Of a DNA stretch of 51,423 nucleotides, positions 6,101 to 35,181 are shown piece by piece. A program made the translations under genes and the position numbers. The number at the start of each line of letters is the position of its first letter. Positions within the stretch are counted from its first letter, which is position 1. The notes under the pieces are model-generated. The model had not been told where the DNA came from, made no database searches, and saw only the letters and a program-made list of their open reading frames with translations. The stretch lies in NCBI GenBank assembly GCA_018303285.1, contig JAGVYL010000019.1:1-51423 (forward strand). Direction: 5' to 3'. Source of the stretch: Candidatus Woesearchaeota archaeon. Its GTDB lineage: Archaea > Nanobdellota > Nanobdellia > Woesearchaeales > GW2011-AR9.

Positions 6101-7916
6101 AAAATTCAGCTCCTTGCGCAGGAAGCTGAGGATGCGCACGAATCTGATATTCAAACCGGTAGTCAAATCCGTTATAAACAACATTGGAGATATTTGCCCA
6201 ACAACCAGTTGATGTATTAGCATCAGTATCTAAAAAATAATAATACTTTCCAGAACCGCCAACTGGAGCGTTTGTACAAAGCAAAGATTTAGACATATTA
6301 GTCACTCCAATCCCTATTCCTAACGAAGTACCCATATCTTTTATCATAAATTGACGCGCATCAATCTGCTGAGGTAAAGTAATATTAATCCCGTCACTAA
6401 ACAAAGATACGGGAGGAGAAGGATCCATATCTTTAAACATAGATAACCCCAAAGCTACGTTTTCTATTAAACCATAATCACCAGTCAAAACATTAACATC
6501 CCCTCCGCAAGCAGCATCTTTTTGGCAACCGATCGGATCATAACAATCTGTGAACCCATTTCCATCATTATCCGTACCGTCATAACATAATTCTTTTATC
6601 TGGTCTGTTGGGGGGTTAGTAGCATTCCAGCAAAGATTAAGGGGCGCAGTCCAGTTTCCGTTCACTGCTAAACAAGTCGTCTGATTAAAACAACGTTCAA
6701 GCTGAGTTCCTGCCCCGCACATAAAATTATAAATTACAAAACTAGGCTCACACCAAGATTTACCAAATTGGGGATCTGTATTCCACGCACATCCCTTAGT
6801 TTGAATTGAATTAAGAGTAGGATATGCGGAAGCATTGCAGGCTCTTTCACTATAACAATTTTGACAGTCATTATCACATGAACCACTTGAAGCGCTTAGG
6901 AACAATGCTTGATCTTCTACGCAAACGCTATTCTGGCTGAGATAAGAAAAGTTATTCATTCCTACGGGTAGTACCTTTGGCGGAGCAGGTACTACTTTAC
7001 ATTTTCCCCTACCGCCTGTACTTGTACAATCCGTAGAGTTGGTACATGCCCCGCAGAAATTAGCACAAGATTGTGCTCCAAAATTAGGATTACACATATT
7101 ATCAAAAGAGTTCCACGTACAATTTGTTACTCCGAGTCTGTTAGCAACATTAGTGGTACAATTATCTGAGTTTTGACCGCTGTAATATTTACAGGGATCC
7201 TGCGAAGAGAACATAGTATCTGCCGCATTAAAAAACATTACTTTATCATCACCGAAACTTCCCAAGCTATCTAGGGGTACATTAACATTACTATCCAAAG
7301 TTGTAAACACATCAAAATTAACCTTTCCGATGAGTCCGCCAATATCTGTTCTATTGATAGCAATCTTGATATCTCCAATTCCGCATGTTTTAAGTGTGTT
7401 CACTGGCACGGAAACGTTTGTTATCCACGCTGGTGAAGGCAAACTTTGAAAAAACTGGAAATAACTGCTTGTCGCATTTAACTTAATTCTGTAATCTGCA
7501 CCTGGATAACAAATACCAGTACATCCAGTTAAGGGATTGTTATCTCTATCAAATTCAATAAATAATGTAGCTGGTGTCGGTCCGCCCGGGTTGCAGAATT
7601 TAGCATTATTAAAGTTTGCCCCCCCTGATTTAATATCCCATGCGATATATGTGGCATCAAAATCTATCCAAACCGCTCCCAAATCATAATTAATATCACT
7701 TCCCGGACAACCTTGACCTGCAATTCGTATTGAAGAAGAAGGCACTCCCGGAGCCACACAGCCCGGACCATTTATGGCATATGGTGCAGTAGTTAAAAGG
7801 AATGTTCCAAAATTAGTCCAAGCTACTGCTCCCTGAACCAAGTCAATGCTTAAACATAGAAAAACTAAACTTACGAAAACTATCAAATAAGATTTATAAT
7901 TTTTTCCGCACTTCAT
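3159..7916 (-). CDS. giant (1585 aa) cell-surface glycoprotein candidate, S-layer/adhesin-like
   Basis: N-terminal signal peptide and a C-terminal TM anchor (WLYLGLKIFLILVAAALIWLIIHHYRKK). There are dozens of N-x-S/T sequons and Cys-rich DNDG..DC-type modules. The membrane-proximal domain ends in YYSASTPGFSYFAVG, resembling the archaeal PGF-pre-PGF domain. SD AGGTGA is upstream. Confidence 0.8.
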   Translation of the reverse strand: MKCGKNYKSYLIVFVSLVFLCLSIDLVQGAVAWTNFGTFLLTTAPYAINGPGCVAPGVPSSSIRIAGQGCPGSDINYDLGAVWIDFDATYIAWDIKSGGANFNNAKFCNPGGPTPATLFIEFDRDNNPLTGCTGICYPGADYRIKLNATSSYFQFFQSLPSPAWITNVSVPVNTLKTCGIGDIKIAINRTDIGGLIGKVNFDVFTTLDSNVNVPLDSLGSFGDDKVMFFNAADTMFSSQDPCKYYSGQNSDNCTTNVANRLGVTNCTWNSFDNMCNPNFGAQSCANFCGACTNSTDCTSTGGRGKCKVVPAPPKVLPVGMNNFSYLSQNSVCVEDQALFLSASSGSCDNDCQNCYSERACNASAYPTLNSIQTKGCAWNTDPQFGKSWCEPSFVIYNFMCGAGTQLERCFNQTTCLAVNGNWTAPLNLCWNATNPPTDQIKELCYDGTDNDGNGFTDCYDPIGCQKDAACGGDVNVLTGDYGLIENVALGLSMFKDMDPSPPVSLFSDGINITLPQQIDARQFMIKDMGTSLGIGIGVTNMSKSLLCTNAPVGGSGKYYYFLDTDANTSTGCWANISNVVYNGFDYRFEYQIRAHPQLPAQGAEFLQSYRCLSNGNFSLFRAKMASGPTRAEFGGKVGCMTDNAILSVDKKSISNPNGKMRFMVATSDNATSVSQANDTLLGLNNLGIYYTPGTVDFKPKDCFSNPSACGTAFSTIGGGKFMPFEDCFPTSGDEDLDGLTNCADSDCSMAPWCAGTDYITNDQTAPTVNSIAAEQFNNFVFLHWVTNEPTNGTITMHSSCVNSTAVNTIYELGNPSFTFDDYRPWHDLGIRNNTLDSLGVTVSLSTNTTKFYKLKSCDRAGNCATSSCLNFTTSTVASNVQYRFNFVAPSGNALLQNTAIKIWNGTAYESVTAGQSSNRSNYLASAKLKFEDTTANWSIELEGVNLAKTVDFNMSSGFNVTTAGTKTHVGLNSQKYQEIAQSLGATSILIKIPGLGTKLTKCNENNLSDCSDVSAQAEKNETNVSGNYVVWRVPTSLGFSVYSNGNETFNLTFSNLTTVVPQTISGTTNATYRFNITNWDNTSRMYNFTATTTGATGRINGSNMLQVNLTNSSSTIFVLDLNSSASGDYTAVIFATIYNDPSVVLNSTADLLTTINFTVDATNPSIVIQTINAQSNNSWTNNLTLQINTTVIDAHISYWNITIHNMTTASQIIISNRTAGRNISNLFVILNVSVEGNYTVNLTAFDTLNNSNSTLFAIRLDTVSPTSSVSCDKTSVTAGTTITCTCSAADALSGVATQTFSSETPSVSSAGTFTSTSCTVTDNAGNSVIGSGVSYTVTAASSSSSSGGATGSGGGSSTGVTGQFEKKVWSLINAGEVATIEVKKDGMTATKVEFKTTEKAAGAWVNVKRVEKSDMPSSTSSALSNTVYQYMEITKSSSLKDTAISEGKIEFKVEKSWLTQNKLDKTAVALFRYADSKWNELKASVLKEDDKLIYYSASTPGFSYFAVGKSSTPAVEPVKEEAKELVTEVKESVVVEEEKNVSQEPSILSKLNKKWLYLGLKIFLILVAAALIWLIIHHYRKKAKN

Positions 7917-8046: not shown

Positions 8047-8838
8047 ACCTGTCTGCCATGTCTGGTTGAAATAATCATCCATTGCCGAAGCGAAATATGG
8101 AGATTTCGTCCAGATACCGATGTCGTAGTTGGGATGCGCTTCTTTATCATCCAAAACCGCGTATACCACATCTTTTCCGTCAACCACGCAGAATCTTCCT
8201 TTTGCATTTTCTACGTGCCGTATCTCTGCTACGTCTTTCAAGCTTTGTATCAATTCTGCATGCTCTTTAGTGGTAGGAGCGGCGATTCTGATTTTCACGC
8301 CCTTTTTCTTGGCTCGTTCAAAAGATGCTCGCAGATGATCCACTTTACGAATCAAGCCGGCAGAGGTAGTCATAATATTGACGCTCTTCTTTGCTTCCTT
8401 AACCAATAAATCAAGATGATTGTAAAGGTTATGTCTTCCTCGCATACAGCCGGACAATTCTGTCGGATCCACTAAGTTGATTCCTTGAGTAAACAGAGTC
8501 TTTAATTCAGACATTAATTCTGAATCTCGTGTGACTTCCAGCATTCGGACTTTCTCCGCTGCTTCAATATTCATATGTCGTTTTGCTCTATCCACTACTT
8601 CCTCTGGCTGCACCGCGATATATTTAATCGGCTTGCCCAATTTCATTGTTACAAAACCTTTTTTCTCCAAGCTCTCTAAAACATCGTAGCTTCTGCTTCT
8701 CGGCACTTCGCCTATGTCAGAAAGCTCTCCTGCCGTAGAAACTCCTCGGCTCAATATTGCTGCCCACAGCTTCACTTCGTACAAATTCAGGTCGAAGTGT
8801 CGTCGCAGTTTACTCAAAAAGTCGTCTTTTACGATCAT
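8032..8838 (-). CDS. TrmB-family transcriptional regulator
   Basis: N-terminal wHTH (LNLYEVKLWAAILSRGVSTAGELSDIGEVPRSRSYDVLESLEKKGFV) and a C-terminal TrmB-type domain. Confidence 0.85.
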   Translation of the reverse strand: MIVKDDFLSKLRRHFDLNLYEVKLWAAILSRGVSTAGELSDIGEVPRSRSYDVLESLEKKGFVTMKLGKPIKYIAVQPEEVVDRAKRHMNIEAAEKVRMLEVTRDSELMSELKTLFTQGINLVDPTELSGCMRGRHNLYNHLDLLVKEAKKSVNIMTTSAGLIRKVDHLRASFERAKKKGVKIRIAAPTTKEHAELIQSLKDVAEIRHVENAKGRFCVVDGKDVVYAVLDDKEAHPNYDIGIWTKSPYFASAMDDYFNQTWQTGKVPK

Positions 8839-8984
8839 ATTGTTTCACACCCCTCGATTTTTCACCCACTTTTTTTACAACTTTCCTTTGCTACTAAGTT
8901 CTAAGTAAAGAGAACTACTATTAAAAGGTTGCGGTTGTATAGCATATAGCTTTAGTGACTAAAATCCGAAGATATAGTTCGTAC

Positions 8985-10166
8985 TCATATCCCTGGTTCA
9001 CTTTTTGGAGATGATTTCTCCATCATGGCCGTGCATTTATCTTTGCCAATAAACTTTCCGTTAATGGTGCATTCTTTTGGGGGCCCGCTATCTGGAGCAC
9101 CCGGAGGTGATTTCTCCTTTCCATCATCTTTGCTTTCAGAAGGAATAAGCGGTATACTAGCATCTGAAGGCAGAACAGATTCTTTTTTAAACAAATTTTT
9201 AATCCAATCAACAAGTTTAGTTAAAAGATTTCGATTGTCTTGTTCTTTATATTGAATGTCCTGACCCGTATATTGTTTATCAGTTATACCAGCTATACTA
9301 GCAGCCGGCTGGTAATTAGGTTTTCCCTTCACTTCTGTCTGCACTTCTTTACCTATCTTTTTTTCATACTTTTGAGCAACATCTATCAATGTTTTCAACG
9401 ACTCTTTAGAGCATCCTCCGCCAGCTGGTCTTCCAGATTCAGTTGGCCCCATTTGGGAAATGTTTGGATGAGACTGAGTAAATTGTTCGCAGTTGGTTGT
9501 ACCGGTATTATAGATGGAAACCCGTTTCAGCTTTTGTAAATCATCAAGGCAAGATAAATCTCCAGTTATACCTGGGTTCCCAGGATATTCGTCTGCGATT
9601 CCTAACTCTTCGAGATTGATTAATTTGCTAAGCGAACAAATGTCTCCAAAGATGTTAGTGCCGCTGATATAAATTGCCTTTAGATTTGGCATATTGGCAA
9701 GGACAGCGATATCCCCCGAGATTTGAGTATGGGTCATGGCAAAAGTCTCCAACTTGGTCAAATACTTTAAACAGGAAATATCTCCGGTTACCTTAGGGTC
9801 AAAAGCAAATTTTAGGCTTCTCAGCTTTGTTGCTCCAGCCAGTGAACAGATATCGCCGGAAACATCCGGATTGGAATAAAGACTAAAGACTTCCAAATTT
9901 GTCAGACTTTTCAGATTAGCGATATCCCCCATAATTGTCCTGTCTGTTGCATCCATATATTGCAGGCAAGTTAAATCCTTAAGCTGACTTACATCTCTCA
10001 GTAAATCTATATTATTAATCCGGATAAAATCCTCTTGAGGGTAAAGAATTTGATACTCTTTATACACCGAAGTGGTAAGACCCCCGGACTGGCACGGCTC
10101 CAATGCAGAAACAAGATTAATCAAAAAGAACACTATAAATGCCAATCCTACACCTTTTTTGATCAT
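8985..10166 (-). CDS. secreted leucine-rich-repeat protein
   Basis: Signal peptide, then about 7 repeats of roughly 24 aa of the form L..L..L......I.GDI..L, and a low-complexity Pro/Lys-rich tail. Confidence 0.8.
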   Translation of the reverse strand: MIKKGVGLAFIVFFLINLVSALEPCQSGGLTTSVYKEYQILYPQEDFIRINNIDLLRDVSQLKDLTCLQYMDATDRTIMGDIANLKSLTNLEVFSLYSNPDVSGDICSLAGATKLRSLKFAFDPKVTGDISCLKYLTKLETFAMTHTQISGDIAVLANMPNLKAIYISGTNIFGDICSLSKLINLEELGIADEYPGNPGITGDLSCLDDLQKLKRVSIYNTGTTNCEQFTQSHPNISQMGPTESGRPAGGGCSKESLKTLIDVAQKYEKKIGKEVQTEVKGKPNYQPAASIAGITDKQYTGQDIQYKEQDNRNLLTKLVDWIKNLFKKESVLPSDASIPLIPSESKDDGKEKSPPGAPDSGPPKECTINGKFIGKDKCTAMMEKSSPKSEPGI

Positions 10167-10226: not shown

Positions 10227-11276
10227 TTACCACTCCATCTTGAACCTTAATATCGCCCCTATTCCCCCCAAACCATTTAATTTTTTTCCCCCTTCATGCT
10301 CAGAAGAGATTATATGCACTTCTCCTTTGCTTTTCTCTGTATTCCTCATCAGCCAATTAAGCTCTTCAAATTTCCCTTCTTCTTTTTTCTTTTGGATAAG
10401 GGAATCTATTACCAGCAGTTTCTCCACTGCTCCGCTGTCCACTGCTTGTTTTACTTCTTTAAGGCCGTAAGCCGCCATCCCTTTCTTATTGATTTGTATC
10501 AGCAGTTCTTCCACCAGATTAATTTCTTCCCAGAAGCGGCTTTGCTTTAGCGTTTCCTTCAGCTCCGGCCGCTTCATCACTTCACTTACGGCACTTTCGT
10601 CCACTGAAGAGCAGGTAGCTAAGACAATCTTCTTTTTCAGTTCCCCGTCTTTCACTAATTTCGCCAAATCTTCTTTGTAAAACGCCGGGCTGGCCAAGAT
10701 GATTCTTTCAGGATTAAACCGCCCAGCATATTCTCCCAGTAATTTTATTATTTCCGGATAAAATTGACCTTTGGCTGCTGCTCGTTTTTCTTTTTTCTCC
10801 GGCTCTCCGGAAATCTTTGTCAGCAGTTCGTAGCCGTAATTCTTCGTCAAAAAGAAGTATCCTTCTTCTCTGTCAAAAACACAGACAAGATATTGGTATC
10901 TCTTCTCCGCCGCTTCTTTCAATCGTTTGATCAGATAATCCGGCCAGTTTTCTTTCTCTAAAGTGAATTCACTGTCTTCGTCTATAGAAATAGTATGAAA
11001 ACTGCCTTTCGGGATGTCTTCTTTCTCCTCGTCGGTTTTGCCTGCTATCCGCAGAATATTGTTATACTTATGAAATTCCACTTTTTCTACTGCAATGCTG
11101 AGGGTAATAGTTTTCTTCACTGCTTCTTCTTTTTCCCCCAGCTTAATCTTGCGAGTAGTTTTAGCCCGCACTCTATCTCCTGCTTCAATAATCTGGCTCA
11201 GATACCAAAGATCATCCAGGCTGTTAACTCTTAACTTCGCATAGCCCTTGCGAAAATCATGGGAAAGTATCTGCAT
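10227..11276 (-). CDS. pelA: Pelota/Dom34 mRNA surveillance factor
   Basis: MQIL..D.RKGYAKLRVNSLDDLWYLSQIIEAGDRVRAKT and the eRF1-like central and C-terminal domains match the family. Confidence 0.9.
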   Translation of the reverse strand: MQILSHDFRKGYAKLRVNSLDDLWYLSQIIEAGDRVRAKTTRKIKLGEKEEAVKKTITLSIAVEKVEFHKYNNILRIAGKTDEEKEDIPKGSFHTISIDEDSEFTLEKENWPDYLIKRLKEAAEKRYQYLVCVFDREEGYFFLTKNYGYELLTKISGEPEKKEKRAAAKGQFYPEIIKLLGEYAGRFNPERIILASPAFYKEDLAKLVKDGELKKKIVLATCSSVDESAVSEVMKRPELKETLKQSRFWEEINLVEELLIQINKKGMAAYGLKEVKQAVDSGAVEKLLVIDSLIQKKKEEGKFEELNWLMRNTEKSKGEVHIISSEHEGGKKLNGLGGIGAILRFKMEW

Positions 11277-11402
11277 AAAGAAGAGGATATTCCGATAGTT
11301 TAAAAAATTAAGTGCCCTTAAATACTACACCTACTGAAAATACCTATCCTACCGCAGATAGTTTTAAATATTCCTACTCTATTCTTGCATCTGGTGATAC
11401 TT

Positions 11403-12599
11403 ATGAATATGAAAATTATGAATATGAAAAAAAGAGCGGATGGGGCTCCTGCAGCCGCCACATTATTAGCTATTATTATGGGTTTGATTGTTTTATATGT
11501 CTTATTCATCCCTCCTGCTGAACGAGCCAAGCTCTTAGGTGATGATTCCACTACCACTTCTATGGGTTCTACAACTACCAAAGGCCTTGTCCTTCTCAAA
11601 GAAAGTCCTGGAAGAGTAGATTTCCTGCCCGAAGACACTAACGAACACGCCTTGCCTGCAGTCTACATCTTCATCAAAAAAGAAGGTGCCGTTTTCGGCC
11701 AAAAACCTTTGACTCTCATCAAGAACAGCTTATTTTCCAGCAAATCAGAGAATATTTATTTTGATGTCTATGATTTAGAGAACACGGAAAACGTTCTTCT
11801 CTCTGCTTCAGTTAAGAAGAGTCAAGGAGAACTTGTTCTTACTTTAAACGGCGAAGAGATTTTCAGCAGCTTTGCTGAAACCGGAGCCATCACTCCCCTC
11901 AAAGTGCCTAAAGGATTACTTAAAGAAACCGGCAATCTTCTGGAAATTTCTGTTTCTTCTCCGGGAATAGCTTTCTGGCGGACAAACGAATATAATATAG
12001 AAAACGTCCAGATTGTCGGCGATGTCCAACGGGTGGAAACTCAAAAAGCCAAAAGCTCGTTTTTAGTTTCTGAAACTGAAAAGAACAATCTAGAAAAAGC
12101 AGAGATAAAAATGTCAGTCGACTGCCAGATGGAGAAGGTAGGAAAGCTGCGCATCTCTCTAAACAACGAACAAATTTATGCTGGCATCCCTGATTGCGGC
12201 TCTTATCTCAGCACTGAACTTTCTCCGGATTCATTGAAGAAGGGCAGCAATGAGATGGAATTTTTTACCGAGAGCGGCTCTTATTATTTATCGCTTATCT
12301 CTCTTAAATCTCAGCTGAAAGAAGTGGATTTTCCCACTTATTACTTTGAACTCTCAGAAGAGCAGTTCTCTGAAATAGAAGATAACAAGAAAGAAGCCGT
12401 CCTTACCTTGAACTTTGTCGATTCTGTAGACAAAAAACAGGCCGATGTCCTGGTCAACGGCCACATGAACAACATCGACCAGAAAGGAATCTTCTACAAT
12501 GTCAGCATCTCTGATGATGTAGTCAAGGGCACCAACTCTGTCAAGGTCAAGCCCAAGAAAAGCATTGAGATAAAAGAATTAAAGGTTGACTTGAAATGA
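11403..12599 (+). CDS. N-terminally anchored surface protein with a pilin-like leader and three internal beta-rich repeats
   Basis: MKKRADG-APAAATLLAIIMGLIVLYVLF resembles an archaeal class III (type IV pilin-like) signal. Three repeats follow L.LNG..I....(20-30)..K.G.N. The start is ambiguous (TTG 11385; ATGs at 11403, 11409, 11418, 11424). Confidence 0.6.
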   Translation: MNMKIMNMKKRADGAPAAATLLAIIMGLIVLYVLFIPPAERAKLLGDDSTTTSMGSTTTKGLVLLKESPGRVDFLPEDTNEHALPAVYIFIKKEGAVFGQKPLTLIKNSLFSSKSENIYFDVYDLENTENVLLSASVKKSQGELVLTLNGEEIFSSFAETGAITPLKVPKGLLKETGNLLEISVSSPGIAFWRTNEYNIENVQIVGDVQRVETQKAKSSFLVSETEKNNLEKAEIKMSVDCQMEKVGKLRISLNNEQIYAGIPDCGSYLSTELSPDSLKKGSNEMEFFTESGSYYLSLISLKSQLKEVDFPTYYFELSEEQFSEIEDNKKEAVLTLNFVDSVDKKQADVLVNGHMNNIDQKGIFYNVSISDDVVKGTNSVKVKPKKSIEIKELKVDLK

Positions 12600-12758
12600 T
12601 TATTTTTTTATTTTTATTGATTAATTTTTAATTATTCAATGCATCTCTCTTAATCTTTAATCAGATTTATAAACCCAAAAGATTTCTCTCGGGATATAGT
12701 CCTAAATATAATAGGATATTAGTAAATATCATAAGACATCATAAAAAAGAGGCAATTT

Positions 12759-14627
12759 ATGGTTTCATCTGAAGAAAAAGCAAAGCGTAAACAAATGCGG
12801 ACAGTGGAAGAGCTCCGCCGGGAAGTCAAGGGAATCGGCAAAGGTTCTTTTTCCCAATACGCTAAAAAAGAACAGAAAGTGCAGGAAAAAATAGCAGAAC
12901 GAAAGCTTCCTTCTGCCCAAAATGTCCAATTTTCCAAAACTCCTCTTCCGCAACAAGAGACTCAAGCTTTCAAGACTCCTCTTCCGCAACAAAATGCAGC
13001 CCCAATAAAAAATCCTGAACCAAAACGAAGTTTCTTCGAAGCCATGCGTTCTTCCGGCAGCAAAGTCTACGGAGCAGCTGCGGCTGGTGCCGGCAAAGCA
13101 AAGGAAGCGGCCAACATCAATATCCCCTCTATGTTCGTCTACATTTTTATGATTCTTATCGGCGGCTTGGATGTTTATCTCAAAAATATAGTCGGTTATG
13201 CTCCCTCTGCTTCAGTATTCATTTCATTGATCATCGCTTTGGTTTTTGCCTTTATGGTCTGGGGCAATCAGTTTTTCCGCTCGCTGGTTTTTGGCGCTTT
13301 CTTTGCCGACTTGGCCTTGGAAGGAATATTATATTACGCCCCCCAATCTGCTTTATCCGACACCTTAATCATCATCAAAGTTTTTCTCTGGCTCGGCTTG
13401 GCCATCACCCTTTTCATCCTCGGTTTCATCGAGCACCTCAAAGAAAGAGAGAAACCCGGCATTTTTGCGGATATTGTTATGCTCATTATTGTCGGTGCTC
13501 TAATCTTCTTCCTTTTCCCCCAGTTTCTCCAAGTCTATGAACTGCAATCTGCAGAACATCGAGATTATTTCACGGTCGTAGAACAGACTGGAGAAAAGAT
13601 TACTGTTGCCGCTAAAGAAGCCAAGACAAGCATTATTGATTATATAGACTGCATCTTCGGCGCCGGTCAAGTCTACACCGAATGCTTGGAAAACAAGCGT
13701 ATTGAAAAAATCTGCGCTCCGTACAAAGATGATGAAGAGCAGTATGCCGCCTGCAAAACAACTAAAGGACAGAACTTAAATAATGTGGCTGGAGCAGCAG
13801 ATAAAACTGCTGAATCCACAGAGATAAAAATTGCTGGCCCGGCATCCGGCCAAATATATTACGGAGAAGAAACTCAGGTCCTGGCTACTTTGAAAACTGT
13901 CAACCCTCACGAAGAACCAGTAGAAATGACTGCTTCCTGCTCTTTCCAGACCAGCTCTTCGACAAACAAACAGAACATCACTGGTAAAATTGAAAATCAG
14001 GAAGGCGCCATGCCATTCAAATCTGGAACTGAAGAAAAATCTCTCATCTGTGCTCCTGAATCTCCGTTAATCAATGGAAAATACAAAGTTACGTTTAATT
14101 TGGAAATGGCCAACTTAAAAACGGTTTCCACTTTAAAACGTGTATTCATGGGAGAAAAAGAACTGAAAACAGAGAAGGAAATTAAAGAAATCCGTTCAAA
14201 AGAATTTCCCGGCAAAGAATATCTCTCCCAAGCTCCAGAAGATTTTCTGCGCATTAACTTTTGGGTAGGAAGTTCTCAAAAAGAGCCGTTAATTTTTTCT
14301 GATGAACAGCCGATTTTAGTTGCAGAATTAGAAAACCTAGGCAAAGGAGAGATTATCAAGATAAATAATCTTAACTTTAATCTCAAAGGCATCACTGCTG
14401 CCACTTCCAAAAACGGCTGCTTCCTTCAGCAGAGTGATTTAAAAGTCCCTCCCAAAGCCAAGAAGATGGATTTAACTGTCTGTTCGTTAAGCTTGCCTCA
14501 GCAGTTGAAATCTCCTGAAGGAAAGTATGCTGAAGAAAACTTTGAAGCCATTATAGAATATGATTATAAAATAAAACAAGAATTCAATATAGAAGTAAAA
14601 AAAGTCAGCTTAGAGCAGATAAGTTAA
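12759..14627 (+). CDS. polytopic membrane protein with a large extracytoplasmic C-terminal domain
   Basis: Charged N-terminus with the tandem KTPLPQQ repeat, about 6 hydrophobic helices (residues ~125-265), and a Cys-containing domain. Its end (ELENLGKGE, IEYDYKIKQEFNIEV) resembles the downstream lipoproteins. Confidence 0.7.
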   Translation: MVSSEEKAKRKQMRTVEELRREVKGIGKGSFSQYAKKEQKVQEKIAERKLPSAQNVQFSKTPLPQQETQAFKTPLPQQNAAPIKNPEPKRSFFEAMRSSGSKVYGAAAAGAGKAKEAANINIPSMFVYIFMILIGGLDVYLKNIVGYAPSASVFISLIIALVFAFMVWGNQFFRSLVFGAFFADLALEGILYYAPQSALSDTLIIIKVFLWLGLAITLFILGFIEHLKEREKPGIFADIVMLIIVGALIFFLFPQFLQVYELQSAEHRDYFTVVEQTGEKITVAAKEAKTSIIDYIDCIFGAGQVYTECLENKRIEKICAPYKDDEEQYAACKTTKGQNLNNVAGAADKTAESTEIKIAGPASGQIYYGEETQVLATLKTVNPHEEPVEMTASCSFQTSSSTNKQNITGKIENQEGAMPFKSGTEEKSLICAPESPLINGKYKVTFNLEMANLKTVSTLKRVFMGEKELKTEKEIKEIRSKEFPGKEYLSQAPEDFLRINFWVGSSQKEPLIFSDEQPILVAELENLGKGEIIKINNLNFNLKGITAATSKNGCFLQQSDLKVPPKAKKMDLTVCSLSLPQQLKSPEGKYAEENFEAIIEYDYKIKQEFNIEVKKVSLEQIS

Positions 14628-14633
14628 ACAAAA

Positions 14634-15485
14634 ATGAACACTAAACATTATCTCCTCATCGCCTTTGTTCTCCTTTTCTTTCTTGCTGCCTGCGGTGGTT
14701 CTTCCCCCAATACTGCGGCTAGCTTCAAAACCGGCTACAAAGGGGTAGTGGTTACGCCAATAAAAAATGCTCCGCCCCCGGAGATTTACTCGGGCAGCAA
14801 TATTAAAGTAGGGATACGTTTGGAAAATCTTGGCGCTTATAAAGCGACCAACGGTAAAATTCAAATCAGCGGCTTTGATAAGACCTATCTCTCTTTTTTC
14901 AAAACAGAAGAAACTCTTGAAACCATGGAAGGAAGAAGCGCTGTCAATTATATCGGCAGTTTAGATTTCAAAGAATTTGAAGGAAAAGTTTCTCTGCCTG
15001 AAGGGCTTAAAGAACATTTAGAAAGATTCAACATTGTCACTTCATATGATTACACTACTGAATTGAACTATGATGCATGTATCAACCCCGATATGTACGG
15101 GTTAGCCGCCGGAAAAGATGCCTGCAAAATCAAGGACACTGCTTCTTTTTCTGGTCAGGGTTCTCCCCTCGCTATAGAAAAAATAGATGAAATCATTTTC
15201 CCCGGCAATAAACCCAAAGTGGAATTTCGCTTGCATCTCAAGAATAAAGATAAAGGAAAAATAACTGATTTAGTGATAGAAGAAGGAAAATTAGGCAATC
15301 AAATGATCCTCTGCTCGCCGACAGAATTAGACTTAGAAAAAGGAGAAAATCTAGTCGTCTGCCAGGCTCCTCTGCAAAATCAGAATGTTTATACCACCAC
15401 CCTTTTCGTCAAAGCCACATTCTCATACGAAACCACTAACTGGATAGAACTGAACATCATCGGCCAGAAACCATTTTATAAGTGA
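14634..15485 (+). CDS. lipobox protein, paralog 1 of 3
   Basis: Signal plus lipobox LAAC|GG. The motifs NAPPPEIY, RLENLG and a terminal SYETTNWIELNI are shared with 15556 and 16709. The start is 6 nt after the upstream stop. Confidence 0.75.
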   Translation: MNTKHYLLIAFVLLFFLAACGGSSPNTAASFKTGYKGVVVTPIKNAPPPEIYSGSNIKVGIRLENLGAYKATNGKIQISGFDKTYLSFFKTEETLETMEGRSAVNYIGSLDFKEFEGKVSLPEGLKEHLERFNIVTSYDYTTELNYDACINPDMYGLAAGKDACKIKDTASFSGQGSPLAIEKIDEIIFPGNKPKVEFRLHLKNKDKGKITDLVIEEGKLGNQMILCSPTELDLEKGENLVVCQAPLQNQNVYTTTLFVKATFSYETTNWIELNIIGQKPFYK

Positions 15486-15555
15486 GTGGGATGTTTAAAC
15501 TCTTCTCCAGTATAAAATAGAAAGATATAAAAAAGCCAGAATAATCTCTCTTCAA

Positions 15556-16479
15556 ATGCAAAAAAAGAGGCTATTGTTAATAGTTTTATCTGCTCTTCTA
15601 GTCTTAACTGCCTGCGGTGTGCCCCAAGGAGAGAATCCCGGCCAATCAGCCGCTGCCCTGCAGGCCGCTTCTACTGGCTTTCAAGGAGTGGAGATTCAGT
15701 TTATGCCTAATGCTCCCCCCAATCAGATTTATGACGTCAATCAATTAAATGCTATCGTCGAAGTGAATAATCTCGGCCGCTTCAACTTAGAGCCGCAGAA
15801 TTGTTTTGTAGAATTAAGCGGCTATGATTCCACCATCATTACTGGAATGAATTACCGCCAGAGCTGCGGTTTGCTCGACGGAAAAAATCCGTACAATCTT
15901 AATGGCGGCTACAATCAGATTGAATTCAAATCAGGAAATATTCTTCTTCCTGCCAATACTCCAACTTACACCCCCACATTACGCCTTGCTGCCTGTTATC
16001 AATATCAAACGGTAGCTACGCCTCAAGTTTGCGTTGATCCTCTTTTTTATACTATCAGTTCTCAACAAAAATCCTGCAATCCCGGCAGCGTACAGATGAG
16101 CAGCAGTCAAGCCGCTCCGGTAGCAGTCACCAATATCTATCCCCAGATGCTCGGCGGTAAAGCTTTATTTGATATTACTATCCAAAATGTAGGGGGAGGA
16201 TTGGTTTTAAGCCCTTTCACCAGCTTACTCTCCTGTCCGAGTAATCTAGGTTATCAAGATGAAAATAAGGTGGCTTACTCAGTAAGCATGGCCGGCGGAA
16301 CATTGATCAGCTGCAAACCAGAAAGCGGAGTAGTTACCTTGAACAACGGCCAAGGCAAGATGATTTGCCAATTCTCTATCGGCAACAGCCCCTCTTTTGA
16401 AACTCCTCTGAGAATAGAATTAAACTATAATTACATGAAATCCTGGCTGAAATCTGTCCAGATTGTCCAGACACCATAA
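15556..16479 (+). CDS. lipobox protein, paralog 2 of 3
   Basis: Lipobox LTAC|GV. Contains NAPPNQIY, VEVNNLG, IQNVGGG and a terminal LNYNYMKSWLKSVQI. Confidence 0.75.
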   Translation: MQKKRLLLIVLSALLVLTACGVPQGENPGQSAAALQAASTGFQGVEIQFMPNAPPNQIYDVNQLNAIVEVNNLGRFNLEPQNCFVELSGYDSTIITGMNYRQSCGLLDGKNPYNLNGGYNQIEFKSGNILLPANTPTYTPTLRLAACYQYQTVATPQVCVDPLFYTISSQQKSCNPGSVQMSSSQAAPVAVTNIYPQMLGGKALFDITIQNVGGGLVLSPFTSLLSCPSNLGYQDENKVAYSVSMAGGTLISCKPESGVVTLNNGQGKMICQFSIGNSPSFETPLRIELNYNYMKSWLKSVQIVQTP

Positions 16480-16500
16480 TTTTTTTCTTTTTACTGCTCC

Positions 16501-16508
16501 AAAACAAG
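16501..16508. repeat. left copy of 8-bp direct repeat aaaacaag (putative target-site duplication)
   Basis: Identical to 16624-16631 and immediately abuts the inverted-repeat element. Confidence 0.5.
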
Positions 16509-16623
16509 GTATGTGCATAGCGCGAATATCGCCAGCGAGTGAACAAAGTTCATCATTAGACGGTACTTGGTGTTTCATTACGAGATGCTTTGAATGAAAC
16601 ACACGAGCGAGCTATGCACATAC
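16509..16623. mobile_element. 115-bp MITE-like element with terminal inverted repeats
   Basis: gtatgtgcatagc (16509-16521) is the perfect reverse complement of gctatgcacatac (16611-16623). With one mismatch the match extends to 16 bp. An internal 10-bp hairpin gtgtttcatt/aatgaaacac is present. There is no coding capacity, and the element is flanked by the 8-bp direct repeat. Confidence 0.55.
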
Positions 16624-16631
16624 AAAACAAG
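16624..16631. repeat. right copy of 8-bp direct repeat aaaacaag
   Basis: Identical to 16501-16508. Confidence 0.5.
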
Positions 16632-16708
16632 AAAACTATTTAAATACCAAGATAAACCTCAATTATAATAATTAAGTTTAACTATATCAACAAAAAGGAG
16701 GAGAAAAC

Positions 16709-17605
16709 ATGAGAAAAATAGCTTTATTTTCCCTGATTTTAGTCGGTTTATTTTTAGTAGCCTGTGGTGAAACGCCCCAGACTCAAACTAAAGATGTTTT
16801 TTTCGGCGGCACTAATGGTGTAGAAGCCAAATTCGAACTGATGGGTGGAGAACAGGATAACATTGATACGATTTATGACTCCGAAGCATTTTTAGTAGAA
16901 GTCACGTTAAACAATAAAGGAGAACATGAATTAGCTCCAGAAGATGCTAACGTAAGATTACTCGGTCTTCCTCCTTCAAGTTTCCAAGGTATTGCTTCAT
17001 GGGAATTGTCAAATAAAGATATTGTCGATAAAGTATCGGAATTAAATAAAGCCGGCGGCCAGGAAACTGTCTCCTTCGGCTCAGCTGTCAAATACTTGCC
17101 TAAAGTAACCACTTATGCTGATTTAGAATGGATTGCCGAAGTCACTTATCAATACAAAACATATATCCGCGTAGACAATGTCTGCTTCAAAGGAAATCTC
17201 AATGATAAACGAGTCTGTGAAGTGGCAGAACCTAAACCTTTCCATGTCTCTGGCGCACCGATTACTATAACTTCAGCTAAAGAAGAAACCGCCGGCAGCG
17301 GCATTGTTGCCTTGACTTTGGAAGTAAAAAATGCTGGTCCGGGAAAATCTACTAAAGACGCCGACTTTAACTTCAATTTCAACAATTTCGGTTTCACTAT
17401 TGATGAGCCAGAATTATGGGACTGTAAATCTGCGGGTAAAGTAAACGAAGGCCGCTTCGATGATACTGGTAGTGCGTCTATTACCTGCAAATTGAAAAGC
17501 CCCCTGGCCAAAGAAGACTTGTATACCAAGAATATTGGTTTGACCTTAAACTACAAATATCAGAGCTTGGCCCAAACTAAATTAAGAATCAAAGAAAGCC
17601 AGTAA
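16709..17605 (+). CDS. lipobox protein, paralog 3 of 3
   Basis: Strong SD AAGGAGGAG and lipobox LVAC|GE. Contains TLNNKGE, LEVKNAGPG and a terminal LNYKYQSLAQTKLRI. Confidence 0.75.
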   Translation: MRKIALFSLILVGLFLVACGETPQTQTKDVFFGGTNGVEAKFELMGGEQDNIDTIYDSEAFLVEVTLNNKGEHELAPEDANVRLLGLPPSSFQGIASWELSNKDIVDKVSELNKAGGQETVSFGSAVKYLPKVTTYADLEWIAEVTYQYKTYIRVDNVCFKGNLNDKRVCEVAEPKPFHVSGAPITITSAKEETAGSGIVALTLEVKNAGPGKSTKDADFNFNFNNFGFTIDEPELWDCKSAGKVNEGRFDDTGSASITCKLKSPLAKEDLYTKNIGLTLNYKYQSLAQTKLRIKESQ

Positions 17606-17627: not shown

Positions 17628-18215
17628 TTACATTTGGTATACTACTTCACGTTTTTCTGTTGGAATGAACGAAATTTCTATCCCGCATAATTTTAATGGA
17701 ACGGTGTTTACTACTTCAACTTTAACCAAGACATAGGGGTCTAAAGTTCGTGCTGATTTTCCAAGTTCTAATTCACGATGATGTAGATTTACTTTTTCTC
17801 CAGCGACTACGGATAACAATGCTGTTCGTGTTACGATTTCCATAGCCGTGCTTTTATTAATCATATCATCTGCGGTAACGTCAGTTAGACTGTCAATTAG
17901 AGTATAGTTTCTCTTTCGGGCATAACAGAATTCTATTGCCACTTTTTCCCGCGAAAAAGAGATCGTTTTTTGAGTTTTACTTAATCTTCTAGTAGTGTGA
18001 TACATTCCAACTGTTTCTAAGTCTTGGACATTTAATTCATCTTCTAGAAATCCGCCTTGTTCTCGTGTGGAAAGATAACTTTGGGTTTGATCGGCGCATT
18101 TAGCCAATTCTCGTAAAACATCATCAATTGTTTTAATGCTTTCTTCTACTTCGATTCTTTCTTCAATTTTTCTTAAGCTTGAAGAGACGATAATACGGTT
18201 GTGGCTTTTATCCAT
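17628..18215 (-). CDS. hypothetical protein (195 aa), probably co-transcribed with rfcS
   Basis: ATG-initiated ORF 32 nt downstream of rfcS on the same strand. No recognisable motif. Confidence 0.6.
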   Translation of the reverse strand: MDKSHNRIIVSSSLRKIEERIEVEESIKTIDDVLRELAKCADQTQSYLSTREQGGFLEDELNVQDLETVGMYHTTRRLSKTQKTISFSREKVAIEFCYARKRNYTLIDSLTDVTADDMINKSTAMEIVTRTALLSVVAGEKVNLHHRELELGKSARTLDPYVLVKVEVVNTVPLKLCGIEISFIPTEKREVVYQM

Positions 18216-18246: not shown

Positions 18247-19209
18247 TTAATTCTCTTTTTTATTTCCAATCACTCCCATATACGCCAAGAACGCTTCAAT
18301 CTGCACAAACTCGTCTGCTCCTTCAGTCATCCTGAATTCCATCTCTCCACAGCGGTCGATCAGCTGCATCTTAGTTCTATCATCAAGAGAAAGACTCCAA
18401 ATCTCTCGCTGTATCTGTTTAATCATATCCAAGCCGCTTAAACCGCAGCTGAGCATCATCTCCAGCATTTTTTCCCGTGCCATCAAGAACTTCCCTTTGG
18501 CCGCCATTTCCAAAACCTCTTTTACTTCTTTAGGCTTGACTGCTCCGGCCACGATATAAACTCCTTCTTTAGTTATTTTCTTGTCAAGAACTGCGCAGCT
18601 TTGCAAAAGATTCTCTAATCTACGGCAGTCTCCTTCTGAAACTTCCAGCAAGACTTTTTTCGCTTCTTCTTCAACTTCTAAACCTTCTTTTTCAGTAATA
18701 TGTTTAATAATCTCCCCTACGTTATCTTCACTCAATGGCTTAAACCTAAAAATCGCGCATCGGCTTTGTATCGGCTCGATAATCTTAGAAGAATAGTTGC
18801 AGGAAAGTATAAAACGGGTCGTTTTAGTAAACATCTCCATAGTTCTTCTCAAAGCCTGCTGAGCTTCCCGTGTTAAAGCATCACATTCATCCAAAAGAAT
18901 TATCTTAAAGGGCACATCTCCCATCGCTTTGGTACGAGCAAAATCTTTTACTTTTACTCGGACAACATCGATTCCTCTTTCGTCAGAAGCATTAAGTTCT
19001 AAAAAATTGTCTCTCCAAGAAAGACCAAAGAGCTGTTTAGCAGTCACTAAGGCCAAAGTTGTCTTACCTACCCCTGCCGGTCCGGCAAAAAGCAGATGCG
19101 GCATGTTCTTCTGCTCCACAAAGGCTTTCACTCTAGAAACGATTTCTTCCTGGCCTTTGACCTCGTCAAACTTCTCCGGCCGGTACTTCTCTGTCCAGAT
19201 AGCAGTCAT
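18247..19209 (-). CDS. rfcS: replication factor C small subunit
   Basis: WTEKYRP..F.EV.GQEEIV, Walker A GPAGVGKTT, the DEAD-like ILLDECDALT and the SRC motif (IQSRCAIFRF). Confidence 0.95.
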   Translation of the reverse strand: MTAIWTEKYRPEKFDEVKGQEEIVSRVKAFVEQKNMPHLLFAGPAGVGKTTLALVTAKQLFGLSWRDNFLELNASDERGIDVVRVKVKDFARTKAMGDVPFKIILLDECDALTREAQQALRRTMEMFTKTTRFILSCNYSSKIIEPIQSRCAIFRFKPLSEDNVGEIIKHITEKEGLEVEEEAKKVLLEVSEGDCRRLENLLQSCAVLDKKITKEGVYIVAGAVKPKEVKEVLEMAAKGKFLMAREKMLEMMLSCGLSGLDMIKQIQREIWSLSLDDRTKMQLIDRCGEMEFRMTEGADEFVQIEAFLAYMGVIGNKKEN

Positions 19210-22139: not shown

Positions 22140-22272
22140 TCCCCCCTCCCGGACTCGAACCGGGGATTCCTCGGTGACTATTGGCTGACTGAGTTTCATT
22201 CAGAGCATTTGTGCTTCGTCCCTCAGCGCATAAAGCTACAGCCGAGTGTTCTAGCCACTAAACTAAGAAGGA
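22140..22272 (-). tRNA. tRNA-Tyr(GUA) with a 60-nt intron after position 37
   Basis: Cloverleaf: acceptor tccttct/agggggg (three G-U pairs), D arm gttt-agtggcta-gaac, anticodon stem ctcgg/ccgag with loop cuGUAg..a, T arm cccgg-ttcgagt-ccggg. The D arm closely resembles archaeal tRNA-Tyr. Confidence 0.7.
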
Positions 22273-25109: not shown

Positions 25110-25202
25110 GCTCCGGTGGTCTAGCTCGGCCAAGGACACAGCCCTTTCAAAGATAAGAACTAGAGAAAGGCTGTAACCCGGGTTCAAATCCCGGCCGGAG
25201 TA
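25110..25202 (+). tRNA. tRNA-Glu(UUC) with an 18-nt canonical intron
   Basis: gctccgg/ccggagt acceptor, D arm gtct/ggac, anticodon stem cagcc/ggctg with loop cuUUCa[18 nt]a, T arm ccggg-ttcaaat-cccgg. Close to archaeal tRNA-Glu consensus. Confidence 0.9.
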
Positions 25203-25782: not shown

Positions 25783-27965
25783 TTACGCCCCGACCATCGC
25801 GTCAGTCAGTTTCTTCCTCGTCTTGATTTCCTGCACCACTCGGGTTTGCAGTTCGAAAGGCAGCTTTTCGAAGCTTTGGTCGACCAGTGAAGAAACTCCT
25901 CGGCCTTCTGTTGCGCTTCTTAATTCAGAACTCCACCCCAGCATATTCATTACCGGCATCTTTGCTTTGATAGCCACCTGATGCTCTTCTTGTATCAAAT
26001 CAAGCAATTGACCTCTCATGCTGGTCACTAATTTAGTCAATGTTCCAGTATATTCTGAAGGAGCTTCAATTAACATTACCTGCAACGGTTCGTATAAGAC
26101 TGCTCCACCAGTCATCATTGCCCCCCGAATACCTTCACGGATAGCGGGATAGACCTGAGCCGGACCTCGATGGATTGCATCTTCATGCAGTTTCATATCT
26201 ACCAGATTAACTTTTACTTTGATGCAGGGTTCTCTTACTAAAGGACCATGGCGCATTACTTCTTCAAACATGTCCAAGATTAATTCTATCACTTCGTGCA
26301 TATAGACTTGGCCTTTAGTTTTATCCAAAAACAGATTGCCTTGATAGATATCCTTCACTTGATCTGCTTCTTTAGAATCCATTCCTACTGCCATCAAGGA
26401 TTCTCTTAATTCCAAATTTTTCTTTTTTGTTTTACCTTCTTGGATTTTTCCTTCTTTGATAGCGGTAGAAATCTCTTCAGAAAGCGGCTCCACAGTAAAA
26501 TAAAATTTGTTATGCTTATTGGGAGTCTTTCCTTCTACCTCTTGAGAAAGTTTGGTAAGTGTTTCTCTAAAGACTACAATCGGCTGAGAAGTTTCTACCT
26601 CTACTCCTTTTTCGGTCTTAATTCTATTTTCAATGATTTCCAGATGAAGTTCTCCCATTCCGGACATTAAATTTTCCCCGGTTTCTTCATTTATTTCAAT
26701 TTTAATAGAAGGATCTTCTCGTCCTACTTTTCGCAGTACTTCAATCAGCTTAGGCAGATCCATCTGCTTCTTCGGCTTGATGGCTTTAGTGATAACCGGC
26801 TCAAAGATATGTTTTAACTCTTCAAAGGCCTCTTCCGGCTCGACAGTTACAGTCTCTCCGGCATTGCCTACCACTCCGGAAATAGCTAAAATGTTTCCTG
26901 CCGGCAGACTGTCTACTAATTCTGGCTTGATTCCGTGATAAATGTAAACGTTTTGGATTCTTTGTCTTACTTTGGCATTATTCAGATAAACTTCCATTCC
27001 GCTGCGGATTGTGCCAGAAAACAAACGTCCGGCAGAGATATCTTTTCCGCTGCGCGGGTCAACTACAATTCTGGTGATGACAAAAGCTAATTTTCCGTCA
27101 GGATTAGTAGTCAATAAATCTTTGCCGAATTCGCTTTCCATATCTCCGTGCCAGATGCGGGGGATGCGATATTTTTGGGCATCGACAGGATCAGGATGAT
27201 GTTTGATGACCATATCTAACATTACTTCATAGAGCGGAGCATTTTCCCAGACCCATTTCTTTCTCTCTTCTTCTTCCAGTTCATAAATATGAAGAATATC
27301 CTTGAATCCAATACCTTTTTTCTGCATAAAAGAAAGAGACAATGCCCAGTTCTCTCTTGCAGAGCCAAACGCCACGCTTCCGTCTTGGATGCTTACTTTC
27401 CATTTCTCTGCAAACTGCGGCTCGGCAATTCGTTCTATCAATTTATTAAAATCCATGATTAACTTGATGAATCTTTCTTGAATCTTTTCAGGAGATAGTT
27501 TTAACTCTTTCACTAAACGGTCTACTTTATTGATAAAAAGAACTGGTTTGACTCTCTCTCGAAGAGCCTGCTTGACTACCGTCTTCCCTCTACTGCGCAG
27601 ATAAGGACAACTGTTCCGTCTACTGCTCTCATTGCTCGAGTGACATTGCCTCCAAAATCAACGTGCCCAGGAGTATCAATCAGATTAATGAGGTATTCTT
27701 CACCATGGTAAATGTGAACCATAGAAACATTGGCTGCATCCACCGTCATCAGTCTTTCCTGCTCATCCAAGTGCTGCCAAGTAGCCATACCTTCTTCCAA
27801 ATCTCCTGCGGACTTAGAGGACATCAAACCGGCTGCAGCTAGCAAATTATCTGTTAAAGCAGTCTTTCCATGATGAATATGGGCAGAGGTGCAGATATTC
27901 CTGATGAACTTGGGATTCTTGGTGATTCTGGCCACCTTCTCAATCATTGTTCCAGCTGATGCCAT
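25783..27965 (-). pseudogene. fusA: translation elongation factor aEF-2, interrupted by a frameshift near 27585
   Basis: The N-terminal ORF (27576-27965) holds G1 AHIHHGKT and G3 DTPGH and ends ..AVEGRR*. The other frame continues immediately with [24 protein letters not shown] and the rest of aEF-2, including the diphthamide site HEDAIHRG. The conserved (A/V)MPQT between AVEG and (E/K)TV is missing. Confidence 0.85.
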
Positions 27966-32825: not shown

Positions 32826-32834
32826 GGAGGAAAA

Positions 32835-35178: not shown

Positions 35179-35181
35179 AAA

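Follow-up and report, generated by a model that had tools for sequence, protein, structure and literature searches.

An order-wide set of cell-envelope genes in Woesearchaeales: three paralogous lipobox proteins, their polytopic relative and an anchored beta-domain protein

What does a run of five genes encode when every product looks exported or membrane-bound and none belongs to a family that can be named? The question is raised by a locus in a 51,423-nt stretch of contig JAGVYL010000019.1 (assembly GCA_018303285.1), which comes from a DPANN archaeon of the Woesearchaeota/Nanoarchaeia; this whole stretch is called the window below. A first-pass annotation of the DNA described a co-directional surface cluster, comprising a protein with a pilin-like leader, a polytopic membrane protein and three lipobox paralogs, and saw in it a membrane platform with related lipid-anchored subunits, possibly a surface-layer, adhesion or substrate-capture assembly. 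The five plus-strand open reading frames (ORFs), here named g1 to g5, are indeed present, and they belong to an envelope-protein set of the Woesearchaeales that is core, present in single copy and vertically inherited:

11418–12599, plus strand: g1, a 393-aa surface protein, N-terminally anchored (the mechanically called ORF starts at TTG 11385)
12759–14627, plus strand: g2, a 622-aa polytopic membrane protein
14634–15485, plus strand: g3, a 283-aa Sec-type lipobox lipoprotein (FLAAC), partner of g2
15556–16479, plus strand: g4, a 307-aa lipobox lipoprotein (VLTAC)
16709–17605, plus strand: g5, a 298-aa lipobox lipoprotein (FLVAC), the third paralogue

All five are genuine genes: homologue clusters exist for g1, g2 and g4, and orthologues of g3 and g5 occur in the loci of relatives. 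More than 221 clusters were found for g1, all of about 395 aa and all from Woesearchaeota/Nanoarchaeia; an exhaustive HMMER scan gave 191 representative clusters for g2, typically of 550–690 aa; and g4 has 49 clusters (E 1e-98 to 1e-34), with orthologues 42–53% identical. Wherever a homologue of the five proteins has a source name, that name is Woesearchaeota, Nanoarchaeota or Nanoarchaeia. The reading frame of g1 stands, but the TTG at 11385 that had been taken as its start is probably wrong; the orthologue alignment and the 393-aa gene call point to ATG 11418 or 11424. Hydropathy and signal sequences bear out the view that all five products are membrane-anchored or exported.

Evidence for a core gene set comes from a pattern scan with the g1 alignment, covering a single genome from each GTDB species; it gave 80 loci (numbered with L), whose ORFs were called and scored with hidden Markov models. 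Among non-redundant loci, 83 have g1 and 76 have g2, which is immediately followed by a lipoprotein gene in 69. Loci that lack the full trio are mostly cut by contig ends; the true exceptions are L037, L060 and L088, with no g2 downstream, and L031, where other lipoproteins replace g3. The divergent genes upstream of g1 encode Pelota (64 loci) and TrmB (55 loci), and the conserved core order is TrmB-Pelota followed by g1-g2-g3, in a neighbourhood with phenylalanyl-tRNA synthetase (PheRS). Retention of the trio in 69 of the 76 loci with g2, within this constant PheRS/TrmB/Pelota neighbourhood, is what one expects of a core function encoded in single copy. The genes g2 and g3 are 6 nt apart in the window, as first annotated; in 46 of 67 loci they overlap by 4 nt, which indicates translational coupling and implies co-translation and a fixed stoichiometry.

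The genes g4 and g5 mostly lie elsewhere, adjacent to each other and to the gene for the small subunit of replication factor C (RFC), as in L001, L003 and L042; g4/g5 adjoin RFC in L001, L003, L005, L016, L042, L044 and L086. Neither g1 nor g2 occurs within 8 kb of the pair in L001 and L003, and on contig DATDTM010000047.1 (L004/L031) the two halves of the cluster stand about 40 kb apart in one genome. In about 70 species loci, unrelated genes come after the trio. Close relatives of the window (77–83% g2 identity) have g1, small ORFs, g2-g3-g4-g5 and RFC in this order, and a contiguous array of TrmB-Pelota, g1-g2-g3-g4-g5 and RFC is found in L016, L044 and L086; L089 and L041 probably have it too. 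Since g1 from array loci is 37–48% identical to that of the window, the five-gene order is plausibly ancestral. The stable units are thus the trio g1-g2-g3 and the pair g4-g5, which the window shows joined. The expectation that the cluster would be conserved as a unit elsewhere holds for the trio, the pair and some full arrays, but outside the close relatives of the window all five genes are contiguous in only 4 of about 80 species loci. The two genes that anchor this synteny in the window lie outside the system:

10227–11276, minus strand: Pelota (Pfam eRF1_1/2/3), divergent upstream neighbour and synteny anchor of g1-g2-g3
18247–19209, minus strand: RFC small subunit (Pfam Rep_fac_C/AAA), convergent downstream neighbour and synteny anchor of g4-g5

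The surroundings of the cluster in the window are archaeal housekeeping genes, namely those for TrmB, Pelota, the RFC small subunit, aEF-2, PheRS and an AspRS/AsnRS-type synthetase, and the GC content is about 40% across the window, without a compositional break at the cluster. In the same genome set, median identities are 43% for g1, 43% for PheRS-alpha, 39% for PheRS-beta, 51% for Pelota, 27% for g2 and 30% for g3, so that g2 and g3 co-vary at 27–30%. True orthologues of g4 are 44–53% identical and those of g5 43–47% (the latter including L001 and L003), which is comparable to PheRS (39–43%).

The paralogy of g3, g4 and g5 is visible at several levels. Their N-termini consist of an n-region, an h-region and a lipobox, which reads LAAC, LTAC and LVAC, respectively. 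The lipobox cysteine of g4 (Cys20) is invariant in 29/29 relatives, and all 69 lipoproteins at the g3 position have an h-region ending in x-[GSA]-C, with the Cys present; NCBIfam gives just weak matches to lipoprotein signal models for the three proteins. By signal they are signal peptidase II-type lipobox proteins, with predicted lipidation. BLASTP links g3 to g4 (E 1e-22 to 4e-27) and g4 to g5 (2e-8), with g3 and g5 at 0.03, and comparison of family alignments with hhalign gives probabilities of 99.7–100% among the three (g5 vs g4 99.9%, g5 vs g3 99.7%). When scored against the families, 69/69 lipoproteins at position 3 fit g3 best, all at position 4 fit g4 and all at position 5 fit g5. They are three anciently diverged orthologous groups with the same two-domain ectodomain. 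BLASTP, hhalign and the lipobox Cys agree with the earlier description of three lipobox paralogs. Lipoproteins are reported to be widespread in DPANN archaea, and the only known archaeal lipidation factors, AliA and AliB, have been described from Haloferax (Hong et al., 2024, bioRxiv 10.1101/2024.08.27.609747).

The fold of these ectodomains is best seen in g4, for which AlphaFold2 (AF2) gave an all-beta model with pLDDT 89 and pTM 0.82 from a 29-sequence alignment: a signal helix and a short helix after the lipobox precede two beta-sandwich domains, which are CARDB/DUF11-like; g4 has seven invariant Cys. Against the PDB, Foldseek returned only generic tandem Ig-like arrays, with TM-scores of 0.25 or below, among them integrin alpha-V thigh/calf, AglB/STT3 C-terminal domains, transglutaminase C-terminal barrels, complement MG domains, Cna, RbmA and WxLIP; in the viral library BFVD the best match was a DUF11 protein. 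Pfam CARDB matched one of 29 g4 relatives (E 6e-4), and g2 to g5 gave no match to CARDB (PF07705) at E up to 1. The suggestion of a CARDB/Ig-like fold thus stands as a fold class, from the g4 model, Foldseek and the DUF11 match, but not as membership of CARDB, whose family threshold g2 to g5 do not reach.

The polytopic protein g2 appears to carry a relative of the same ectodomain. It has a variable basic N-terminal tail, about five transmembrane segments judged from hydropathy (aa 117–262), a Cys-rich helical stalk (C298, C309, C319, C332) and a 360-aa tandem beta-sandwich ectodomain ending in a Y-D-Y strand. Conservation lies mostly in the ectodomain, which has seven near-invariant Cys, N382-P383, R461, F463, N526-x-G-x-G530 and Y601-D-Y603, while the transmembrane region is poorly conserved, with no invariant polar or charged residue; this distribution, with many invariant Cys, Gly, Asn and Tyr in the ectodomain, fits an anchor better than a catalytic or transport core. 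An enzyme or transporter seems less likely from these residues. An Lgt- or AliA-analogue was considered and set aside as improbable: the conserved pockets reported for AliA (bioRxiv 10.1101/2024.08.27.609747) have no counterpart in a transmembrane region devoid of invariant Arg, Tyr and Asp. BLASTP is blind to a relationship between g2 and the lipoproteins (E 0.2–1.5), and a first hhalign comparison of the g2 family (A3) with the g4 family (A1) gave a probability of 12%. With the g2 ectodomain cut from a 73-sequence alignment and a g3-position family built from 69 loci, hhalign gave 93.5% (E 2e-7) over 228 columns spanning both domains, with the N-x-G-x-G turn, two Cys and the terminal Y-x-Y strand aligned in register; the g5 family scored 82% (E 1e-5) and the g4 family 12–27% only. 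Profile comparison thus supports homology of the g2 ectodomain with the g3/g4/g5 lipoproteins, as had been proposed from shared motifs.

The first protein, g1, is unrelated to the lipoprotein family (hhalign below 5%). Its basic leader is short and precedes a hydrophobic helix of 20 aa; a PP-x-ERA motif and an S/T-rich linker then lead to an array of beta-sandwich/jelly-roll domains. By hydropathy the N-terminal helix is its single hydrophobic one. The consensus of the N-terminal alignment is M..K[KR]GQ-AAGAAVLLAIIAGL..PP.ERAEL. Of 40 aligned orthologues, 38 begin with M-x(0-4)-[KR]-[KR]-G/A-Q and continue directly into AAGAAVLLAIIAGLLIMFIIL-PP-x-ERAEL, and the leader sits immediately before a hydrophobic stretch of about 22 residues (e.g. 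K[KR]GQ-AAGAAVLL). By comparison with FlaFind-type motifs, this leader resembles an archaeal class III signal in form. Such a pattern is nearly exclusive to g1, which accounts for 65 of 67 matches in about 1.4 Mb of Woesearchaeal DNA; the window copy deviates, reading KKRAD-GAPAAATLL without G-Q. The AF2 model of g1 has pLDDT 86.8 and a pTM of 0.55, which leaves the inter-domain arrangement uncertain. It shows a helix (10–29), a short helix (32–38), a disordered S/T-rich linker (40–53) and then independent all-beta domains, without the long pilin-type alpha1 helix packed on a beta-sheet, and Pfam scans of 30 other window ORFs gave no PilB, PilC or peptidase A24. The claim of a pilin-like leader is only partly borne out: the orthologues have a class III-like K[KR]GQ, but the window copy (KKRAD-G) deviates from it, the model has no pilin fold and no pilus genes are nearby. 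We treat g1 as an N-terminally anchored protein (N-terminus inside, C-terminus outside) that may or may not be processed.

The best Foldseek matches of the g1 model in the PDB are accessory beta-domains of GH35 beta-galactosidases, the N-terminal region of reelin and the carbohydrate-binding domains of BcsB, all with TM-scores of 0.3 or below (BcsB chains 0.25 or below, at a probability of about 1.0). The g1 ectodomain is an array of jelly-roll/beta-sandwich domains of the galactose-binding-like type with repeated h-h-N-G-x-x-h strands, and hhalign detects an internal domain duplication (96.7%). Pfam BcsB (PF03170) matches 3 of 40 g1 relatives, at E 0.046 or weaker, and does not match the window g1. 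As modelled, g1 is a slowly evolving protein, held to the membrane by its N-terminal helix, whose flexible S/T-rich tether would display jelly-roll/beta-sandwich domains of the carbohydrate-binding-module (CBM) type.

Searches of family libraries returned nothing that would name these proteins. Scans of the five proteins and of the family alignments against Pfam, NCBIfam, PHROGs and PADLOC gave sub-threshold matches only, noise that includes Wzy_C, DUF2207_C, TgpA_N, YfhO, BcsB and CARDB; the Wzy_C and YfhO matches, both among g2 relatives, are weak and far below significance, and Pfam matches to TcpA and PilA4 each involve just one sequence of the lipoprotein alignment A1 and are not significant. 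Profile searches of three family alignments against PDB sequences gave no match, in agreement with the first-pass statement that no family could be named. No substrate-binding protein family was present among the Pfam/NCBIfam matches of g1 to g5, and no ATP-binding cassette (ABC) ATPase or permease gene in the window neighbourhood or the approximately 80 related loci. Known S-layer families (SLH, archaeal S-layer domains, PGF-CTERM glycoproteins) gave no Pfam, NCBIfam or PDB-sequence match, and the cluster proteins end in beta-strands without PGF-CTERM. The proteins thus fall into no well-described ABC substrate-binding or S-layer family, which the first-pass annotation had named as the finding that would overturn its view. 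An ABC binding protein, a known S-layer family and a pilus were each rejected on profile, fold or gene-neighbourhood tests, and a defence system and a viral origin were rejected as well. N-glycosylation sequons, at 0–1 per protein across g1 to g5, are too sparse to interpret.

Two of the spacers within the cluster have features of their own:

12600–12758, plus strand: g1-g2 spacer, read from the sequence
16509–16623, no strand: MITE-like insertion of 115 nt in the g4-g5 spacer

In the g1-g2 spacer, a T-rich run comes after the stop codon of g1 and is followed by an A/T-rich stretch like a promoter; the ATG of g2 is preceded by a purine-rich sequence resembling a ribosome-binding site (RBS), AAAAGAGG. 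The terminator and promoter roles are putative. Over 76 loci its length ranges from 16 nt to 6.4 kb, with a median of about 80 nt and more than 300 nt in 12 loci. The junction is a recurrent insertion site in relatives (L009, L041, L052, L079, L081, L005 and L007, with 0.3–6.4 kb extra), and the insertion in L009 (10325–11146) is a gene with a Bro-N domain. The window's g1-g2 spacer contains no element resembling a miniature inverted-repeat transposable element (MITE). Such an insert, as first noted, lies in the g4-g5 gap. It has perfect 13-nt terminal inverted repeats, GTATGTGCATAGC and GCTATGCACATAC (0.1 such matches expected by chance), is flanked by an 8-nt direct repeat, AAAACAAG, at 16501–16508 and 16624–16631, and folds as a long, strong hairpin (z = -5.9). 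The orthologous site in L005 is empty, with a single AAAACAAG, and L007 has a diverged element at the same site. The insert thus has the terminal repeats, target-site duplication, small size, lack of an ORF and insertion polymorphism of a MITE. A second copy was found neither in the 51-kb window nor in about 200 fetched loci, and a metagenome scan with a 16-mer of the element gave chance matches only, with the full element in no locus. Downstream of it, g5 is preceded by an A/T-rich box and a GGAGGAG RBS, and this upstream sequence is kept in L005 and L007.

Further observations concern the neighbouring genes. In L010, L011, L014, L017 and about 30 other loci, g3 is followed by genes for a bacterial-type, GpsA-like NAD-dependent glycerol-3-phosphate dehydrogenase, a glutaredoxin, a GATase, a small Cys-rich secreted protein and a GH3 (NagZ-like) hydrolase; the window's GH3 pair is 25 kb off, at 42361–43783. 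Records titled 'uncultured Methanosarcinales archaeon' (L017, L022, L023 and about 25 loci) carry the Woesearchaeal cluster and synteny, and their titles are probably mislabelled. The RFC small subunit contains an intein with a LAGLIDADG endonuclease in L003 (12336–15374) and L016 (15929–18814), giving products of about 960–1012 aa. Between g5 and RFC the window has a 195-aa ORF without family match (17628–18215, minus strand), which is a lineage-specific insertion in the window, given that in L005 g5 is directly followed by RFC; L005 also has, beside RFC (8336–9734), an AbiEii-type toxin gene pair split into two ORFs, which the window lacks. Between TrmB and Pelota, which adjoin each other in most relatives, the window encodes a secreted leucine-rich-repeat protein of 393 aa (8985–10166, minus strand). 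The aEF-2 gene (25783–27965, minus strand) is split into a 129-aa GTPase N-terminal part (27576–27965) and a 576-aa remainder (25783–27513) by a 1-nt frameshift at a GGGAA run, after ...AVEG; one added base restores the frame, and the shift could come from a homopolymer sequencing or assembly error, or this essential gene may truly have a frameshift, perhaps a programmed one. Rfam finds two extra tRNA genes, of 93 nt (25110–25202, plus strand) and 133 nt (22140–22272, minus strand), which ARAGORN missed and which presumably contain introns. ORFs without Pfam match encode 1585 aa (3159–7916, minus strand) and 894 aa (22362–25046, plus strand), and five consecutive plus-strand genes (31128–36736; 565, 367, 364, 219 and 231 aa) have none either; all of these are possibly surface-related.

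What the five proteins might do together can be answered only tentatively. The reading we prefer, which we regard as quite possible while falling a little short of probable, is a constitutive hetero-oligomeric cell-envelope complex of Woesearchaeales with a structural or ligand-binding (glycan-binding) role. In such a complex, g2 and its translationally coupled paralogue g3 would form a pseudo-symmetric heterodimer (a pseudo-homodimer) on the outer membrane face, g4 and g5 would supply further paralogous lipid-anchored subunits, and g1 would act as a lectin-like head; the membrane-proximal assembly may organise or anchor a glycosylated surface layer, or space a pseudo-periplasm. We infer it from the anchors or export signals on all five proteins, the paralogy, the g2-g3 overlap, the housekeeping synteny, the recurring arrays and the conservation, and the confident AF2 models, those of g4 and g1, contain adhesion- or scaffold-type beta folds only. 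Several points weigh on the other side. The fold matches of g1 are generic, as their TM-scores indicate, and glycan binding is suggested solely by the type of domain. Rapid evolution is usual for S-layer and other purely structural surface proteins, whereas g1, g4 and g5 change slowly. Lipidation of the Woesearchaeal lipobox proteins is a prediction from their signals. Moreover, most genomes keep the g4-g5 pair apart from g1-g3, and the five products need not form one complex. This last point leads to a doubtful but substantial alternative, that g1-g2-g3 (Pelota-linked) and g4-g5 (RFC-linked) are two independent units whose adjacency in the window is a by-product of genome arrangement. The unrelated genes after the trio in about 70 species loci, the separate RFC-linked pairs of L001 and L003, the two halves 40 kb apart on one contig and g5's own conserved promoter-like region would all be expected from it; however, all four ectodomains are homologous, the identically flanked contiguous array recurs down to 37% g1 identity, which suggests an ancestral state, and one complex could still be built from unlinked genes. 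At the other extreme, the five proteins could be an essential order-wide envelope machine, in which four paralogous Ig-like ectodomains, one with a polytopic and three with lipid anchors, would build a pseudo-symmetric ring or lattice with a lectin-like cap. We consider this decidedly improbable; if true, such a machine could replace a canonical S-layer or acquire host-derived glycans or lipids, and has no known counterpart in archaea or bacteria.

Other readings give the same proteins a task directed at hosts, nutrients, fibres or polymers. As a host-attachment apparatus, they would be adhesins or receptor-binding subunits that dock an episymbiont to its bacterial or archaeal host, with g1 as a lectin for host glycans. 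The matches to adhesin-type modules (integrin alpha legs, Cna, RbmA, WxLIP) and the CBM-like jelly-rolls of g1 would suit this, and Woesearchaeota have been proposed as episymbionts with extracellular host-directed proteins (Castelle et al., PMC8204110). We nevertheless regard it as unlikely: host-specific adhesins normally diversify, duplicate and move, but g1, g4 and g5 match aminoacyl-tRNA synthetases in conservation across an order of many habitats and presumably many hosts, as single-copy genes in a housekeeping neighbourhood, and this strong conservation and synteny argue against such adhesins. Capture of nutrients such as glycans by the lipoproteins and g1, with transfer to a transporter as by archaeal or Gram-positive solute-binding lipoproteins, is very unlikely. 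Lipid-anchored extracytoplasmic proteins do stand beside a polytopic protein, a TrmB-family (sugar-type) regulator is encoded two genes upstream in 55 loci, and GH3 lies a few genes downstream in many. However, the all-beta fold, a beta-sandwich instead of an alpha/beta 'Venus flytrap', and the absence of ABC ATPase and permease genes and of a binding-protein family match argue against solute capture, which disfavours the ABC-type role raised at first annotation; the poorly conserved g2 transmembrane domain, without invariant polar residues, likewise argues against an enzyme or transporter, and the neighbours are housekeeping genes. Highly improbable, too, is a type IV pilus-like system in which g1 would be a prepilin-like protein, processed by a peptidase and assembled on a g2 platform into a short fibre or 'bindosome'-like structure. 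The very short basic leader of g1 orthologues, which ends in [KR]-G-Q directly before the 22-residue hydrophobic stretch and is almost unique to g1, speaks for it, but the window g1 has KKRAD-GAPAAA without G-Q, its modelled 20-aa helix leads into a disordered linker, unlike pilins, the Pfam scan of the 30 other window ORFs gave no PilB/PilC/peptidase genes, and the TcpA/PilA4 matches are isolated and non-significant. The least probable of the readings considered is that g1 steers an exported polysaccharide or glycan from a g2-containing membrane complex, as a BcsB-like polymer guide. The Foldseek matches to BcsB chains, the weak Pfam BcsB matches of three g1 relatives and the weak Wzy_C and YfhO matches of g2 relatives hint at it; yet these are far below significance or low in TM-score, BcsB differs in architecture by its C-terminal anchor and flavodoxin-like domains, and no glycosyltransferase is encoded in or near the cluster.

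Comparison with known systems places the cluster among familiar parts. Like the archaeal Sec lipobox lipoproteins (Hong et al., 2024, bioRxiv 10.1101/2024.08.27.609747), g3, g4 and g5 have a basic n-region, an h-region and [L/V/F]-[L/T/V/A]-A-C with an invariant Cys, and they have no twin-arginine, as expected in non-halophilic archaea; whereas characterised ones are mostly solute-binding or redox proteins, the mature domains of g3, g4 and g5 belong to no described family. With the CARDB (PF07705)/DUF11 Ig-like surface domains the cluster shares a beta-sandwich with an N-x-G(-x-G) turn, but it has its own Cys pattern and terminal Y-x-Y strand, and its short two-domain lipoproteins contrast with long multi-repeat surface proteins. 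The WxL-operon complexes of Firmicutes (WxLIP/DUF916-DUF3324) are likewise an operon-encoded surface assembly, with a membrane-anchored two-Ig-domain protein and co-encoded partners, and the WxLIP structures 9i1y and 9i25 are among the g4 fold matches without any sequence relationship; they differ in having a C-terminal transmembrane anchor and a peptidoglycan-binding WxL domain in place of polytopic and lipid anchors, and the WxL locus is accessory and adhesion-related, not a core gene set. BcsB and the GH35/GH2 accessory beta-domains resemble the jelly-roll/beta-sandwich array of g1 and are its best fold matches, at TM-scores of 0.3 or below, but g1 has its anchor at the opposite, N-terminal end, lacks flavodoxin-like domains and has no catalytic or synthase (BcsA) partner gene that we found, so that the BcsB architecture, in which carbohydrate-binding and flavodoxin-like domains alternate (CBD-FD-CBD-FD) before a C-terminal transmembrane segment, is not matched. 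Archaeal class III signal peptides share with g1 orthologues the basic leader, [KR]-G-Q and a helix of about 22 residues, whereas the window g1 lacks Gly-Gln, no pilin fold is predicted, and no ATPase, platform or peptidase gene is nearby.

Castelle et al. (PMC8204110) describe the lineage-specific families of DPANN archaea as mostly membrane-bound or extracellular and of unknown function; the families of g1 to g5 fit this description and are not individually characterised in the accessible part of that paper. The five genes make up a real envelope gene set that spans the order, was hitherto undescribed and is made from familiar folds; it is new at the level of families and of the system, although nothing shows it to be a machine of a new kind. 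Among archaea, the DPANN lineages account for a large and almost uncultured share of the diversity, and how they build their surfaces and contact hosts is largely obscure. Against this background, the cluster singles out five core, syntenic families, partly as conserved as translation genes, with their architecture and paralogy resolved, and it offers testable targets in two pairs, g2-g3 and g4-g5, and in the lectin-like g1, as well as in lipoprotein biogenesis in archaea outside the haloarchaea.

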